From: Escherichia coli
GTDB lineage: Bacteria; Pseudomonadota; Gammaproteobacteria; Enterobacterales; Enterobacteriaceae
DNA: 64,000 bases
Reading direction: 5' to 3' (one strand)
NCBI RefSeq assembly: GCF_003790525.1
Contig: NZ_CP033635.1
Of the stretch, positions 27,794 through 42,936 are shown piece after piece. Position 1 is the first letter of the stretch. The number at the start of each line of letters is the position of its first letter. The notes below the pieces were generated by a model. The model saw only the letters and a program-made list of their open reading frames with translations, searched no databases and was not told the origin of the DNA. The translations under genes were made by a program, and so were the position numbers.

Positions 27794-28534
27794 ATGTTAA
27801 TTAACCGCAATATTGTGGCGTTATTTGCGTTGCCTTTTATGGCAAGCGCAACTGCTTCTGAATTATCCATTGGTGCTGGTGCGGCTTATAATGAATCGCC
27901 TTATCGCGGTTATAATGAAAATACAAATGCAATTCCGCTGATTAGTTATGAAGGTGATTCTTTTTATGTTCGTCAGACCACGTTAGGTTTTATTCTGTCG
28001 CAAAGTGAAAAAAATGAACTTAGCCTGACCGCATCCTGGATGCCGCTGGAATTTGACCCTGCCGATAATGACGATTATGCCATGCAACAGCTTGATAAGC
28101 GTGATAGTACGGCTATGGCGGGGGTTGCCTGGTATCACCACGAGCGTTGGGGAACCGTGAAAGCCTCTGCGGCTGCGGACGTTCTGGATAACAGCAACGG
28201 CTGGGTGGGTGAGCTATCGGTATTCCACAAAATGCAGATAGGTCGCCTGTCGCTGACACCTGCGCTGGGCGTTCTCTATTATGACGAGAATTTCAGTGAC
28301 TATTACTATGGCATTTCAGAGAGTGAGTCCCGTCGTAGCGGTCTGGCAAGTTATTCCGCGCAGGATGCCTGGGTGCCCTATGTCAGCCTGACGGCAAAAT
28401 ACCCGATAGGAGAGCACGTCGTATTGATGGCGAGCGCCGGATACAGCGAGCTGCCGGAAGAGATTACCGACAGCCCGATGGTTGATCGTAATGAGAGTTT
28501 TACCTTTGTCACCGGCGTGAGCTGGCGTTTTTAA
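27794..28534 (+). CDS. yiaT: MipA/OmpV-family outer membrane protein
   Basis: 246-aa ORF with signal peptide; C-terminal ...VSWRF aromatic end typical of an OM beta-barrel. Confidence 0.85.
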   Translation: MLINRNIVALFALPFMASATASELSIGAGAAYNESPYRGYNENTNAIPLISYEGDSFYVRQTTLGFILSQSEKNELSLTASWMPLEFDPADNDDYAMQQLDKRDSTAMAGVAWYHHERWGTVKASAAADVLDNSNGWVGELSVFHKMQIGRLSLTPALGVLYYDENFSDYYYGISESESRRSGLASYSAQDAWVPYVSLTAKYPIGEHVVLMASAGYSELPEEITDSPMVDRNESFTFVTGVSWRF

Positions 28535-28548
28535 TTCACCGGTGGATG

Positions 28549-28666
28549 TCGGTGCGGCTGGCCTACGTTCTCGCACCGACTCGTGGGCCTGATAAGACGC
28601 GTTAAGCGCCGCATCAGGCAATGTGCACCCTACGGTGGATGCGGCGCGAGCGCCTTATCCAACCTA
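28549..28666. repeat. REP/BIME cluster between yiaT and the GH127 gene
   Basis: Palindrome gtcggtgcgg...ccgcaccgac plus REP-type units gcctgataagacgcgttaagcgccgcatcaggc and gatgcggcgcgagcgccttatcc. Confidence 0.65.
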
Positions 28667-30634
28667 CGGATGGCAATGCTTTTCCTCATTCACCCAGATC
28701 CGCATTTCGCCTTCACCCCGGTTAGCCCAGCTAAACCACGGGATAAATGTCAGAGTTTGCGGCTGGCGTTTGGCTGGGGCATAGTCGTAATGCCACAGCG
28801 GTTGCTGCTCTGGATTGCTCTGTTCATACCGGTAACCCGGTGCCTGGATTAAGATCTTATGGCGGAACAATCCCTTGCCTTCAAATGTCGTAAATGGCGC
28901 ATCGGCGGGCAGCCACAGGTTATGCAGTGACTCGCCGTTGTCGGCCTGTTCCAGGCAATACACCAGCGGGCCGCGCTGAATCGCCACTTTTCCGGCGACG
29001 TGACGCACCAGCGGGTTACCGTAAACGCGACGTACCGGCATTGGCAACGTCAGATTCAGCGTGTCGCCCTCCTGCCATTCGCGGGTAATGTGCAAATACC
29101 CTTTACGAATATCCTGCTCGACCTCTTCCCCATTCAATGTAATCTGCGGCTGTGTGCACCAGTCCGGCAGACGTAAAGCCAGCGTATGACGCACCGGCTG
29201 GGGCGATTCAACCGCAATTGTCACCTGTTCCTGCCACGGATAGTTTCCGCTAACCCGCAGGCGCAACGTGCCATTTTCTACCGGCACTTCCATGCTGTTT
29301 CCTGCGTATATGTTGATATACAACGCATCTTCACGCGGCGTGTAGAGATAATGACCAATCGAGGTTAGCACGCGGGCGATATTTGGCGGACAACAAGCGC
29401 AACCAAACCAACGCTGGCGGATCGGCTTAACGTGATCGTAGATATGGTTGAATTTCAGCGATTTTGGATGTACTTCCAGCGGATTCACATAGAAGAAATG
29501 TTTGCCATCCAGCGCCATGCCGCCGAGCACGGTGTTGTACAGTGCGCGCTCCATCACATCGGCATATTGACTGTCGCCTTCCATTTCCAGCATTCGCCGG
29601 GCGAACATCATCAGGCCGATGGAAGCACAGCTTTCGGCGTATACCGTGTCATTCGGCAGATCGTAATCGCTGCTGAACGCTTCACCGCTGCTCTGTGAGC
29701 CAATGCCGCCGGTAATATATAACTGACGCTGGGCCATATTGTTCCACAGCCGCAAGCAATCCTGACGCTTGCTTTCATCGTGACTTAAACGCGCGAGATG
29801 CGCGACGCCGGTCATCAGGTAGACAAAACGTACCGCGTGACCAATGGCGGTTTGCTGCTGTGCGATGGGCAAATGTGCCTGGCTGTAGGCTTTGTCTTTC
29901 ACCATCCACGCCGGGCCGTAGGTGTGCCAGTGCGAGGTCTGCCCGCGCTTTTCATATTCCTGGTCGTAATAGTGCGGTTGCGCACCACGCTGTTCGACAA
30001 AATAGTTCGTCAGCGCCAGGTAGCGCGGCTCTTCGGTCACTTCATACAGGCGCATTAGTGCCAGTTCAATTTCCGGGTGACCAGGATAACCGTGTAACTT
30101 ACTTTCATCTGGACCAAATACGCTGTCGATATGATCGGTCAGACGGCAAACCACTTCCAGCAAGCGCCGCTTGCCCGTAGCCTGGAAGAAGGCGACTCCG
30201 GCTTCAATCAGATGACCCGCGCAGTAAAGTTCATGACACTCCGCCAGATTGCTCCAGCGTTCTTCGGGCGCTTTTACCGTAAAGTAAGTATTGAGATAGC
30301 CATCTTCACACTGGGCGGAGGCGATCAGTTCAATCACCTCGTCGGCGGTTTTTTCCAGTTCGGCGTCCGGCTTCTGGCACAGCGACCAGGCTACCGCTTC
30401 CAGCCATTTGGCGACGTCGCTGTCCTGAAACACCATCCCGTAAAATTCACCGTCTTGCAGTCCTGCGGCAATGCGAAAGTTTTCAATCGCATGGCTGGGT
30501 TCCGCTTCTGGGATACGATCGTTCAAGGCGTCCCACTGATAAGGAATCACCACATCGCGGACCAGTTGTTGGTACTGACCGAGGAACGGATCGCTGACCG
30601 TCAGTTTATGCAGATCGACTTCCGAAATGTTCAT
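28664..30634 (-). CDS. glycoside hydrolase family 127-like protein (DUF1680; putative beta-L-arabinofuranosidase-type)
   Basis: About 656 aa from ATG at 30634 preceded by taaggag; no signal peptide; conserved Cys-rich C-terminal region; family assignment from memory. Confidence 0.6.
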   Translation of the reverse strand: MNISEVDLHKLTVSDPFLGQYQQLVRDVVIPYQWDALNDRIPEAEPSHAIENFRIAAGLQDGEFYGMVFQDSDVAKWLEAVAWSLCQKPDAELEKTADEVIELIASAQCEDGYLNTYFTVKAPEERWSNLAECHELYCAGHLIEAGVAFFQATGKRRLLEVVCRLTDHIDSVFGPDESKLHGYPGHPEIELALMRLYEVTEEPRYLALTNYFVEQRGAQPHYYDQEYEKRGQTSHWHTYGPAWMVKDKAYSQAHLPIAQQQTAIGHAVRFVYLMTGVAHLARLSHDESKRQDCLRLWNNMAQRQLYITGGIGSQSSGEAFSSDYDLPNDTVYAESCASIGLMMFARRMLEMEGDSQYADVMERALYNTVLGGMALDGKHFFYVNPLEVHPKSLKFNHIYDHVKPIRQRWFGCACCPPNIARVLTSIGHYLYTPREDALYINIYAGNSMEVPVENGTLRLRVSGNYPWQEQVTIAVESPQPVRHTLALRLPDWCTQPQITLNGEEVEQDIRKGYLHITREWQEGDTLNLTLPMPVRRVYGNPLVRHVAGKVAIQRGPLVYCLEQADNGESLHNLWLPADAPFTTFEGKGLFRHKILIQAPGYRYEQSNPEQQPLWHYDYAPAKRQPQTLTFIPWFSWANRGEGEMRIWVNEEKHCHP

Positions 30635-30644
30635 CTTGTGCTCC

Positions 30645-32045
30645 TTAAGGCTGTACATGACGCTGACGCAGGTCGCTAGCAATGCGTGACATCATAGGGT
30701 TATTGAGTTTGCAAAAGCGGATCGCCATCGCCAGCAGCAGGTGGAACAGCGCAGGCAGCAATGTTTCCATTGCTGTGATCCCGCCAAGCGAACTGGCGGT
30801 CTGGTTTTCCACGCCTGGCTGGTAGGCGACAAAAATAAACAGCAGGCTGATGATCCCGGCGCTGGAGGCCCAGGCCAGCTTGATGAAAAACAGATTGAAG
30901 GCGAAGTTCATGCCGGAAGAACGTACGCGGGTTTTCCACTCGCCGTAGTCATCGGCAAAGGCCATCAATGAGAAGTGCAATGGCAATGTGAAGCCAAGAA
31001 TCACGCCATTACCGAGGATCACCGCCAGCCACAGCGTTTGATAAGCCGGGCTGGAGGGCAGGAACCACATCAACACCGCCAGCGCAGCGAGGAGCAGGTT
31101 GGTGTAGTAATAAATTTTGACGGTATCGAAACGCCGCGTTAACGGGCTGACAATCACCGAGCCGATAATGGAGGCGAAGGTGACCATAGTGAAGAACAGC
31201 GACGTGTAGCCCGTACTGCCTTGTAAGACGTAGGTAATGAAGTACATATACCCACCGCCGCGAATATTAAAGACGTTAATCAGCAGGAAAGACATGACCA
31301 GCATCAGCAGCAGTTGGTCGTTGTTCCGCAGCCCGGCAAGATGTTCGCGCAGGGTAAATTTCCCCATTGTGGAGAGTGGCACCCGTTCACGAACCCAGAA
31401 GAAACAGCACAGGAACATCACCACAGCGATGGCGCACAGCACGCCGACGCCCAGTTGATAGCCGCGCGCGGCATTACCCTGACCGAAGAGATCTACCATC
31501 CACGGTAAGCCTACCGAAACCAGAAATCCCGCCACGCCGCAGAGAACGAATCGCCAGGACTGGCAGGAGATCACTTCATTGTGGCGGGTGGTCATGGTGT
31601 TGATCAGCGCGCAGTACGGCACGTTGATGGCGGTATAACCGACTGAAAGGAGCAGGTAAGTGCCGAACGCCCAGGCGATTTTTACTCCCATGCTGGCATC
31701 TGGCACGGTGAACGTCAGGATGCCGATAATGCCGATGGGAATGGCAATCCACAACTGCCACGGACGAAAGCGCCCCCAGCGACTTTGCGTCCGGTCGGCA
31801 ATGACGCCCATCACCGGGTCGGAGATGGCATCAAACACGCGCAGTGCAATAAACAGCGTGCCGACCAGCGCCGGAGTTAAGCCAAAAACGTCGGTGTAGA
31901 AAAAGGTGAGAAAGTTCATGATCAGGCAAGTTATTACGGTGCCGCCTGCGTCACCCAGGCCGTAGCCTATTTTTTCCCGTACAGATAACGCATCGTCAAT
32001 TTTACCTTTAGCGATATCAGCGGTAGTAATCGGTGTAGAGGTCAT
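30645..32045 (-). CDS. GPH-family (glycoside-pentoside-hexuronide) cation symporter, MFS superfamily
   Basis: 466-aa polytopic membrane ORF; N-terminal GPH-type signature ...[25 protein letters not shown]. Confidence 0.75.
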
Positions 32046-32270
32046 AGATATTCCTCGTGAATAGGGAGCAATTTTTAGTTTTATTGCAATGACATGATTA
32101 ATTCTGCCGTGAACGGGAATATCAACAAGGCGAGAAAAGAGTAAAAAAAGGTGACGATTCCGACCTGAATTTAAAAGTGTGAATTGGATCAGGTGAAATT
32201 AATGTTTTTGATTAATAATCAAAAGGTAATGTGTTTAATCATTAATGAATAAGCGGAAAATTACATATCA

Positions 32271-33086
32271 ATGCTCGAATTATCCATGACGTTACCGATT
32301 AAAGTGCAAAATGGTGGATTATTTATTTCCCGTGGCGTAGGGAGGCATCCGGCAAGGCGGCTGGAGTCATGGGAAATTATCTTTGTCGAAAAAGGTCGAT
32401 TAGCGATTCAGGAAGAAGAGCGGATATTTCTGGTCGATGCGGGAGAGAGTTTATTACTCTGGCCGAACCGACAGCATGTTGGGGTAGAGGATTTTCCCGC
32501 CGATCTCAAATTTTACTGGCTGCATTTTGAGGTTAAAGCGCCGGATAGCGACCCGCGCTGGCTCACTCATCTTAGCGTGCCGCAACAAACTAAGGTTGCC
32601 GATCCGCAGGTGCTGGTGGCCTTGTTTCGCCAGTTCTTAAGCGAACAGGAAAAGCATCAACGCACTCCGGCGCTGGAGTTTATTGTGCTGCTGATTTTGC
32701 AGCAGCTCACCCGTGACGCGCGTCTTGATGAACAGGCCGATGGTGCAGGCACCACCCTTGCCTGGAAAGCGCAGAAACTGATTCGCACGCAATATCACCG
32801 CCCGCTTTCCACGGCGCTTTTAGCCCGCGAGCTGTACTGCAATGCCGATTATCTTGGGCGCGTCTATCGGCGGGTGTTTCATCTGACGTTAACAGAAGCA
32901 ATCCACCGCCAGCGAGTGCGCGAAGCCGAAAAGCTGTTAATTAGCGAAGCGCGATCGCTCACGGAAGTGGCGGCGTTGTGCGGGTTTAATGACGTCGGCT
33001 ATTTCCGGCAGATTTTTCGCAAGCACACCGGTTTAACGCCAGCAGCGTGGAAGCGGCGTTACAGCAAGGAACATATCAATTCGTAG
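32271..33086 (+). CDS. AraC-family transcriptional regulator (sugar-responsive type)
   Basis: 271-aa ORF; N-terminal cupin-like domain, C-terminal AraC HTH; divergent from the transporter gene. Confidence 0.75.
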   Translation: MLELSMTLPIKVQNGGLFISRGVGRHPARRLESWEIIFVEKGRLAIQEEERIFLVDAGESLLLWPNRQHVGVEDFPADLKFYWLHFEVKAPDSDPRWLTHLSVPQQTKVADPQVLVALFRQFLSEQEKHQRTPALEFIVLLILQQLTRDARLDEQADGAGTTLAWKAQKLIRTQYHRPLSTALLARELYCNADYLGRVYRRVFHLTLTEAIHRQRVREAEKLLISEARSLTEVAALCGFNDVGYFRQIFRKHTGLTPAAWKRRYSKEHINS

Positions 33087-39688: not shown

Positions 39689-40159
<471 letters not shown>

Positions 40160-40167
40160 TTATCTCC

Positions 40168-41166
40168 TTATAACGCCTGGATTTTTGCCCACACGCTGTC
40201 ATCAACGGTGATGCCGTTACGGCGGTTTTCGGCCAGCAGGGTAGTAAATTCGTGGCCGGGTAAGCGGATGGCCTGGTTTTCGTCAGCGCGTTCAGCGGTA
40301 GTAACGTAATCCATGATGCGTTGCAGCTTGGCATCGCGGGTGGGGCCGTCGATCAATTTATCCACTTCGATGGCGATAAAGATTTGCGAAACGCCGTATT
40401 CGTCGCTGTTGTCCTGGGTGACTTCGGCAACCGATGCGCCGTCGGAAAGGAGAGTGGCGATCATATCCAGCACAATCGACATGCCAGAACCTTTCCAGTA
40501 GCCCATCGGCAAAATGCGGCGATTCTTCTCGATAACGCCAGGTTCTTTGGTCAAATTGCCCTCATCATCAAAGCCACCATCGACCGGGAGCTGACGGCCT
40601 GCCAGACGGTTAACTTCTAACATGCCGTAAGAGAACATCGACATCGACATATCGACCATGGTGATTGGGGTAGAAGGAATGGCGACGATCAGCGGGTTGG
40701 TGCCGATGCGACACTCTTTTGCGCCCCACGGCGGCATTACGGCGATGGAGTTGGTCCAGCAAATGCCAATATAGCCTTTTTCCGCCGCCTGCCAGCCGTA
40801 GCTGCCGCCGCGCATCCAGTGGTTGGCATTACGTAGTGCCACCAGACCAATACCGTGATCGGCAGCCAGTTCAATGGCGCGATCCATCATCTTTTTCGCT
40901 GTCAGGTTACCGATCGAACGCTGGGCGTCCCACTGTTCAATTGCGCCGAGGCTGGTTATACGTTTGGGTTGGGCATCAGGAATGATATCGCCGTTTTCCA
41001 GTTGTTGAATGAAACGAGGGAAACGATTAACGCCGTGAGAATAAACGCCGGATTCGGTGGTGCGGGCGAACATCTCTGCACAGGCGTCAGCCGTTTCGCT
41101 GTCAACGCCGCGTGAAATTAAGACCCGATTAAAGGCTGCTTTTAACTGCTCAAATGTCACTTTCAT
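40168..41166 (-). CDS. yiaK: 2,3-diketo-L-gulonate reductase
   Basis: 332-aa Ldh_2-family dehydrogenase; first gene of the yiaK-sgbE operon. Confidence 0.9.
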
Positions 41167-42837: not shown

Positions 42838-42936
42838 TGCCGGATGCGGCTTAAACGCCTTATCCGGCCTACAAATTCTTCCAAATTCAATATATTGCAG
42901 AAATGATGTAGGCCTGATAAGCGTAGCGCATCAGGC
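42838..42936. repeat. REP/BIME elements between ysaA and avtA
   Basis: gccggatgcggcttaaacgccttatccggcctac and gtaggcctgataagcgtagcgcatcaggc. Confidence 0.7.

Follow-up and report, generated by a model that had tools for sequence, protein, structure and literature searches.

A GH127 hydrolase gene of Escherichia coli starts 10 nt downstream of a GPH-family symporter gene, at an ordinary operon junction with its own Shine-Dalgarno sequence

Our analysis indicates that the boundary between a GPH-family symporter gene and a GH127 hydrolase gene of E. coli is, with high probability, the internal junction of a two-gene sugar-utilization operon, in which the hydrolase starts at ATG 30634 and is initiated mainly through its own Shine-Dalgarno (SD) sequence. 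The junction is real, ordinary and already annotated, and it belongs to an accessory AraC-regulator/GPH-symporter/GH127 locus of E. coli. Positions refer to the window, i.e., the whole stretch of 64,000 nucleotides that was analyzed, which comes from a chromosome essentially identical to that of E. coli SMS-3-5.

The locus includes an AraC-family transcriptional regulator transcribed divergently from the operon (32271–33086, plus strand; RefSeq WP_000891824.1), with Pfam HTH_18, HTH_AraC, and AraC_binding domains all above cut-off, which places it in the AraC/XylS family, with a double HTH at the C-terminus and a ligand-binding domain of the AraC type at the N-terminus. The 225-bp divergent intergenic region (32046–32270) is presumed from its position to carry the regulated promoter(s); a consensus scan of this region returned no sigma-70 match. 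Activator-dependent promoters that lack a match to the sigma-70 consensus are not unusual. The first gene of the operon (30645–32045, minus strand; ends identical to those of the RefSeq CDS) encodes a 466 amino acid protein of the glycoside-pentoside-hexuronide (GPH) family (MFS_2), assigned as a glycoside:cation symporter by Pfam MFS_2 (248.7 bits) and by NCBIfam TIGR00792 (334 bits against a trusted cut-off of 231).

The second gene (28664–30634, minus strand) encodes a 656 amino acid protein of the GH127 beta-L-arabinofuranosidase family without a signal peptide. Its catalytic, middle, and C-terminal domains all score above the Pfam gathering thresholds (PF07944, 374 bits; PF20736, 85.7 bits; PF20737, 88.8 bits), and it aligns to PDB 4QJY (E = 2e-235) and to HypBA1 (PDB 3WKW; E = 4e-153). 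Aligned to 3WKW, it has identical residues in the GESF, ETCAS/AESCAS, and WFGCACCP motifs, and thus the active-site Glu/Cys set is present. In particular, the columns of HypBA1 Glu322, Glu338, Cys340, Cys417, and Cys418 are conserved in the E. coli hydrolase; in HypBA1 these residues are the acid/base Glu and the Zn-binding Glu/Cys/Cys/Cys, including the nucleophile Cys. The protein is predicted to be a cytoplasmic enzyme of the GH127 beta-L-arabinofuranosidase type, and its probable substrates, judged by homology, are beta-L-arabinofuranosyl oligosaccharides. Assignment to the aceric-acid-hydrolase subtype was rejected, since the score against the NCBIfam equivalog fell below the cut-off (457 against 950). 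The 3' end of the operon carries a REP-derived element (Rfam naRNA4, RF02564; 28586–28664, minus strand; 65.9 bits, gathering score 59.5), which abuts the hydrolase stop codon.

On the minus strand, the sequence of the junction is cag cct TAA ggagcacaag ATG aac. The symporter stop codon TAA (30645–30647) doubles as the first three bases of an extended SD sequence, TAAGGAG (30641–30647), which is followed by the 6-nt spacer cacaag (30635–30640) and by the hydrolase ATG (30632–30634). This reading bears out the preliminary description, which had placed the symporter stop codon within the taaggag site of the hydrolase gene and its ATG at 30632–30634. The two genes are separated by 10 nt, with an offset of 13 nt from TAA to ATG. 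A consensus scan found neither a terminator-like nor a promoter-like site at the junction, and a 10-nt gap cannot hold a terminator and a promoter together. The symporter and hydrolase genes are very probably co-transcribed, and a single mRNA would carry first the symporter and then the hydrolase.

A comparison of the junction at the DNA level covered 80 loci, and its geometry is conserved in 54 Enterobacterales species. Among 5426 complete E. coli genomes, 2316 (~43%) contain the junction at ≥95% identity. All 54 species keep a stop codon at −13 (TAA or TGA), GGAG at −10 to −7, the 6-nt spacer, and the ATG. The ATG is invariant, and so is the GGAG apart from an A at its last base in one species; by contrast, the spacer is constant in length and free in sequence, with an entropy of 1.1–2.0 bits per column. 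At the remodelled junctions (Phytobacter/Kosakonia, Buttiauxella, Mangrovibacter, and locus L080), the SD sequence lies on or just after the stop codon, 4–6 nt before a new ATG.

The start of the hydrolase at ATG 30634, rather than at the TTG that opens the mechanically predicted ORF, is strongly supported. This ORF (28664–30682) opens at TTG 30682–30680, exactly 16 codons 5' of ATG 30634, and the preliminary description had already proposed a start 16 codons downstream of it; annotation, comparative sequence, codon periodicity, SD energy, and the N-termini of homologs all agree with that proposal. A second in-frame ATG, absent from the preliminary description, lies at 30658–30656, 8 codons 5' of ATG 30634. 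Initiation at one of these upstream codons would give a protein of 672 amino acids (TTG 30682) or 664 amino acids (ATG 30658) and an out-of-frame overlap with the symporter gene of 38 or 14 nt, respectively. The frame is indeed open back to 30682 in the strain studied, and ATG 30658 is kept within E. coli. Nonetheless, E. coli O157:H7, BY68, and OkiPb01696 have an in-frame TAG in place of the TTG, which is also missing in 20 of the 54 species; 24 of these species lack the ATG at −8 codons, and six have no upstream start whatever. Variation in the 77 nt upstream of the hydrolase ATG is periodic in the codon frame of the symporter and not in that of the hydrolase: entropy is 0.39, 0.29, and 0.90 at MFS-frame codon positions 1, 2, and 3, and this peak at position 3 corresponds to codon position 2 in the GH frame. 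The energy of the duplex with the anti-SD sequence is −8.4 kcal/mol for ATG 30634, −0.1 for ATG 30658, and +0.3 for TTG 30682; by this measure, neither of the two upstream codons has an SD sequence. RefSeq/PGAP annotates the hydrolase start at ATG 30634 in four E. coli genomes (SMS-3-5, O157:H7, and two more), and in SMS-3-5 and three divergent E. coli genomes its annotation leaves 10 nt between the end of the MFS gene and the GH127 start. Finally, neither Pfam GH127 nor the solved structures align before residue 26–28 of the long ORF; homology begins about 10 residues past ATG 30634. Homologs that match the longer N-terminus had been named in the preliminary description as the evidence that would speak against its start; this comparison was run, the homologs do not match it, and the short start stands. 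An upstream start is thus very improbable and already effectively refuted, and both longer N-termini were discarded on conservation, frame periodicity, SD energy, and the in-frame TAG elsewhere. The 16-codon extension (30635–30682, minus strand) corresponds to the 3' end of the symporter gene together with the ribosome-binding site, and it is not part of the hydrolase CDS.

With the start at ATG 30634, we considered how ribosomes may reach it. The preliminary description had joined its start codon to co-translation of the two genes; the start holds, but co-translation is only plausible on the present reading of the sequence, as the SD sequence is strong and unmasked and the +10 nt spacing lies outside the −4/−1 overlap class. 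In one of the two established models of coupling (PMC12548453), the downstream ribosome-binding site is buried in RNA structure and opened only by a ribosome translating the end of the upstream gene. We found no such inhibitory structure over the hydrolase ribosome-binding site. In a single-sequence fold of the 100-nt junction, z was +0.89, and 168 of 200 shuffles folded at least as well; the RNAalifold consensus of 27 species contained only five pairs, all far upstream of the SD sequence and none over the SD sequence or the ATG; and the opening energy of positions −15 to +10 at the hydrolase start was 2.9 kcal/mol, lower than at all but one of the 47 other gene starts compared in the window (second lowest of 48). 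A masking RNA structure was rejected on these three grounds, and the probability that unfolding couples these two genes is close to nil.

The other model, tight termination-reinitiation, deserves more weight and is still unlikely. Here the SD sequence would hold ribosomes finishing the symporter, which would restart at the ATG 13 nt further on; the conserved geometry would have been selected for this, and hydrolase output would be largely set by translation of the symporter. The overlap between stop codon and SD sequence, the gap of merely 10 nt, and the persistence of this geometry in 54 species, with its reappearance in at least four lineages whose junction was remodelled, are all consistent with it. 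In addition, according to reviews, coupling as well as independent initiation can be enhanced by an SD sequence (PMC12548453), and part of the re-initiation efficiency is retained at short distances (PMC10666635). On the other hand, efficient termination-reinitiation has been placed at −8 to +6 nt, with a steep fall as distance grows (PMC10666635), and the pair studied here, at +10 nt, lies beyond the distances that define such pairs (overlap, or −4, −1, up to ~+6), including the −4/−1 overlaps for which coupling has been demonstrated. Re-initiation has been measured at ~0.7% of the upstream rate (k_reinitiation of ~0.007 for 0–25 nt; PMC4538824). The ribosome-binding site is both strong (its anti-SD duplex ranks 8th of 54 starts in the window) and unmasked, so that free ribosomes can load, and the two products, a transporter and a soluble hydrolase, do not assemble into a complex of fixed stoichiometry. 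Moreover, a gap of 9–12 nt geometrically forces the stop codon against the SD sequence, as at three more junctions of the same build in the window: yiaK-yiaL (TAAGGAG, 11 nt), glyQ-glyS (TAAGAGG, 9 nt), and yiaN-yiaO (12 nt). The layout with a stop codon within the SD sequence is therefore not unusual, and it is no evidence of translational coupling, since it is the geometry expected at any operon junction of ~10 nt. It is quite doubtful that this layout, maintained or rebuilt in dozens of enterobacterial genera, represents a selected hand-over device by which ribosomes leaving the membrane-tethered symporter message restart directly on the hydrolase; if it did, the transporter:enzyme ratio would be fixed and the hydrolase would be made at the membrane, beside its importer.

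What the evidence favors instead is an ordinary E. coli "+10 nt" operon junction without a special coupling device. Co-directional genes with a 10-nt gap and GGAG 6 nt before the ATG belong to the junction class of +9 to +12 nt with the SD sequence in the gap, which comprises 203 E. coli pairs (7% of co-directional pairs), nearly all of them polycistronic and judged by the authors to be most likely independently initiated (Huber et al., 2023; PMC10666635). As in that class, the gap here holds only the SD sequence and the spacer; we see no material difference. The pair belongs to the accessory genome and lay outside the authors' K-12 set. By comparison, overlapping ATGA/TGATG coupled pairs (Huber et al., 2019, PMC6728339; Huber et al., 2023) are also adjacent and co-directional, with the downstream SD sequence at the end of the upstream gene, but differ in their spacing (−4 or −1 versus +10 nt), whereas the SD sequence studied here is strong and exposed and the products do not form one complex. 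The hydrolase start at ATG 30634–30632 is served by a strong, exposed TAAGGAG with a 6-nt spacer, and initiation most likely proceeds mainly through this SD sequence. The ribosomes involved could be free 30S subunits or, in a minor share of events, ribosomes coming straight from termination 13 nt upstream. We infer how initiation at the hydrolase divides between de novo events and re-initiation, and a share of the terminating ribosomes may be handed over. The two translation events are not fully independent, since a ribosome terminating at the TAA physically covers the SD sequence and the ATG, and selection for coupling, beyond that for compactness, could explain why the abutment of stop codon and SD sequence is retained almost perfectly across many genera.

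A search of the window for TRAGGAG-N6-ATG returned three matches against 0.12 expected from shuffles. All three fall on annotated gene starts, which argues for a genuine ribosome-binding signal rather than a chance occurrence. The other two matches are fimbrial gene starts, whose TAA is not a stop codon. The enrichment arises because the motif is the canonical extended SD sequence, and the idea that TAAGGAG-N6-ATG is something special was discarded on that basis.

Among known systems, the HypBA1 system of Bifidobacterium longum (PMC7263609) likewise has an intracellular GH127 enzyme encoded beside the gene for a substrate importer. It differs in that the E. coli importer is a single-component GPH/MFS symporter and not an ABC transporter, the regulator is of the AraC type, the E. 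coli locus has no GH121 or GH43 partner genes, and the E. coli substrate is a putative one, assigned by homology. The closest solved relative is the GH127 beta-L-arabinofuranosidase of Geobacillus (4QJY), which comes from a Gram-positive host and aligns over residues 26–666 of the long ORF, lending no support to the 16-residue extension.

The value of these results lies mostly in annotation hygiene: the start given by RefSeq is confirmed over that of the mechanical ORF, which is wrong, and the hydrolase accordingly has 656 amino acids, is cytoplasmic, and carries no N-terminal extension; the start of the enzyme gene is already in the public annotation. The locus is also of mild biological interest as a putative accessory module for the uptake and hydrolysis of plant glycans (beta-L-arabinofuranosides). 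GH127 has been reported to co-segregate with invasiveness among IBD isolates (PMC11879602). About 43% of the complete E. coli genomes carry the locus; in K-12-like strains it is deleted.

The junction between the symporter and GH127 hydrolase genes reads, on the minus strand, ...gtacagcctTAAggagcacaagATGaacatttcg... in the window sequence. The TAA stop codon (30647-30645) of the 466 amino acid symporter ORF (30645-32045) opens a TAAGGAG site (30647-30641), which is followed by a spacer of six bases (30640-30635) and by the hydrolase ATG (30634-30632), so that the stop codon lies inside the Shine-Dalgarno (SD) sequence of the next gene. The mechanically called hydrolase ORF (28664-30682) begins at a TTG (30682-30680), exactly 16 codons 5' of this ATG, and a second in-frame upstream ATG, absent from the preliminary description, is found at 30658-30656. 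Re-reading of the sequence showed that the positions of the stop, the TAAGGAG site and the ATG, as well as the 16-codon offset, had all been described correctly.

In the upstream protein, Pfam recognises MFS_2 (248.7 bits) and NCBIfam the glycoside-pentoside-hexuronide:cation symporter family TIGR00792 (334 bits, cut-off 231). All three GH127 domains were found by Pfam in the downstream protein, which aligns end to end with a solved GH127 beta-L-arabinofuranosidase (PDB 4QJY; E = 2e-235) and with HypBA1 (3WKW; E = 4e-153). In the alignment to 3WKW, the Glu and Cys columns of the GESF, ETCAS/ESCAS and WFGCACCP motifs are identical to those of HypBA1; these columns hold the catalytic nucleophile, the acid/base residue and the Zn-binding residues. 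Since the hydrolase N-terminus (MNISEVDLHKL...) is without a hydrophobic signal-like stretch, the natural reading is a cytoplasmic enzyme supplied with imported substrate by the symporter, like HypBA1, which is intracellular and cleaves imported beta-Ara2 (PMC7263609). A profile match identifies a divergent AraC-family regulator at 32271-33086. At the other end, a REP-derived element (Rfam naRNA4, RF02564, 65.9 bits; 28586-28664, minus strand) begins at the GH127 stop codon. The length of the GH127 gene differs among E. coli strains (1971 or 1980 nt), and the alignment of other genera to the protein ends near residue 650; the repeat may therefore have shaped the last few codons.

The start at ATG 30634 proposed in the preliminary description is right, though it is already the one in public annotation, since the 656 amino acid GH127 protein of RefSeq (WP_001026864.1) begins at this codon, 10 nt after the end of the MFS transporter. 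The junction is annotated likewise in O157:H7 F1273, BY68 and OkiPb01696. The surrounding 4-kb region is 100% identical in E. coli SMS-3-5 and in at least 14 further complete genomes. Taken in the orientation of the record NC_010498.1, the window differs from it by two substitutions within the first 50 kb (at 27928 and 18570, in yiaT and selB); its final 14 kb are shifted in register by 1 nt, somewhere in window 1-14000.

Comparative analysis supports the same start. When one genome per species was scanned, 80 loci were obtained, mostly from Enterobacterales; nearly all of these loci keep the symporter-hydrolase pair, and the junction is superimposable in 54 species. Across these 54 species a stop (TAA or TGA) stands at -13 from the hydrolase ATG, and both GGAG at -10 to -7 and the ATG itself are invariant, but for a single A at -7; the 6-nt spacer is fixed in length and nearly random in sequence (1.1-2.0 bits per column). 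Variation in the 77 nt 5' of the stop has a three-nucleotide period that follows the symporter frame (mean entropy by codon position, from 1 to 3: 0.39, 0.29 and 0.90). Read in the hydrolase frame, the same stretch has its entropy maximum at position 2, where a sequence coding in that frame could not have it, and the normal pattern (0.41, 0.33, 0.89) appears 3' of the ATG. The SD preceding ATG 30634 has an anti-SD duplex energy of -8.4 kcal/mol, ranking 8th among 54 starts in the window. Finally, the Pfam and solved-structure alignments begin only at residue 26-28 when counted from the TTG start, which corresponds to residue 10-12 of the 656 amino acid protein. Homologs do not align to the longer N-terminus, the outcome that would have spoken against this start. 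Both upstream candidates were rejected. The TTG at 30682 (+0.3 kcal/mol) is found in only 34/54 species and is replaced by an in-frame TAG in E. coli O157:H7, BY68 and OkiPb01696, a change that is synonymous in the symporter frame (ATT to ATA); the ATG at 30658 (-0.1 kcal/mol) is found in 30/54, and six of the 54 species have no upstream in-frame start whatever.

In other lineages the junction has been remodelled. It reads TAAGGAG plus 6 nt plus ATG in Phytobacter/Kosakonia, where it is 9 nt shorter, TGAGGAG plus 5 nt in Buttiauxella, TGAAGAGG plus 5 nt in Mangrovibacter, and TGAGGT plus 4 nt in one further locus of the scan (L080). In most genera the start region contains a 9-nt near-repeat in tandem (TCCGTCATG TCTGTTATG, giving M-S-V-M). 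Only one copy is present in the Phytobacter/Kosakonia group, so that its start is 3 codons shorter with the 6-nt SD spacing kept (loci L013, L014, L016, L018, L036 and L068 compared with L021 and similar loci). In the Buttiauxella massiliensis locus (L069, 3604-5860), symporter residues 1-136 run straight into GH127 residue 32, as though a deletion spanning the junction had inactivated both genes. Seven Bradyrhizobium loci (L072-L076, L078 and L081) encode GH127 homologs that start at a GAAGGAG-N6/7-ATG of their own and lack a symporter homolog upstream. For a comparison between Alpha- and Gammaproteobacteria, their amino acid identity to the E. coli protein (~72%) is high, which suggests that plant-associated bacteria have exchanged the gene horizontally. 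The assembly named 'Chryseobacterium sp. 18061' (L025) is probably mislabelled or contaminated: its enterobacterial locus is near-identical to that of 'Citrobacter sp. 18056' (L023), from the same project.

A stop codon placed inside an SD is common. Against an expectation of 0.12, the window contains three matches to TRAGGAG-N6-ATG, and as all three are annotated gene starts, the motif genuinely signals ribosome binding. The other two (6497-6512 and 10171-10186, plus strand) are TAAGGAG-N6-ATG sites at which fimbrial genes of a chaperone-usher operon start, and their TAA does not terminate an upstream gene. Among same-strand neighbours in the window, the upstream stop lies inside TAAGGAG at yiaK-yiaL (40154-40170, minus strand; 11-nt gap), and the layout is similar at glyQ-glyS (TAAGAGG, 9-nt gap) and yiaN-yiaO (12-nt gap), which makes that of the symporter-hydrolase pair routine; because a gap of 9-12 nt only fits an SD and its spacer, the stop must abut the SD. 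The junction belongs to exactly the +9 to +12 nt class of E. coli K-12, which comprises 203 pairs (7% of co-directional pairs), with 194 of the 201 having a characterised transcript on polycistronic transcripts (Huber et al., PMC10666635), and intergenic distances are ≤10 nt in half of E. coli operons (Tian and Salis, PMC4538824). It is a textbook operon junction, already known, in an accessory sugar-utilisation locus.

Co-translation of the two genes, which had also been proposed, would proceed by one of the two recognised coupling mechanisms, RNA unfolding and re-initiation (PMC12548453). Unfolding is unsupported here: the fold of the junction is no more stable than that of shuffled sequence (z = +0.89), the consensus fold of 27 species has no pairs over the SD or ATG, and opening the stretch from -15 to +10 costs 2.9 kcal/mol, with only one of the 48 starts in the window requiring less. 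In re-initiation, ribosomes terminating at the symporter TAA would restart on the hydrolase ATG. Judging from footprint size, a ribosome stopped at the TAA would cover the SD and reach the ATG 13 nt downstream, and an SD can also promote coupling; however, published measurements argue that this route is minor, with a coefficient of ~0.007 at 0-25 nt versus 0.022 at -4 (PMC4538824), and the +9 to +12 class was interpreted by its authors as likely independently initiated (PMC10666635). Given the strong, exposed SD of the hydrolase, de novo loading should dominate. The junction geometry has been retained in evolution, remodelled lineages included, which is compatible with selection for coupling but is explained equally well by ordinary SD spacing constraint plus operon compaction. 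We regard strong coupling as very unlikely; the coupling read from the junction is not proven and, as the evidence now stands, probably matters little.

The whole locus (28535-33086) lies between sgbE (araD) and yiaT. Its symporter-hydrolase junction, and with it the three-gene arrangement, occurs in 2316 of 5426 complete E. coli genomes. In K-12-like genomes a deletion scar takes the place of the locus, with AraC-family (102 bp) and GH127 (189 bp) fragments annotated as pseudogenes; given these remnants, presence looks ancestral and absence the result of deletion. In IBD isolates, GH127 is among the genes co-segregating with invasiveness (PMC11879602). Elsewhere in the window, two RNAs exceed their Rfam gathering scores, the sRNA ES036 (42873-42915, plus strand) and the antitoxin RNA sok (61666-61762, plus strand), which adjoins the annotated hokA toxin gene. 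A full-length cspA thermoregulator (Rfam, 500.9 bits) lies at 63506-63933 on the minus strand, where the RefSeq record names the CDS cspE, which looks like an inconsistency in annotation naming.
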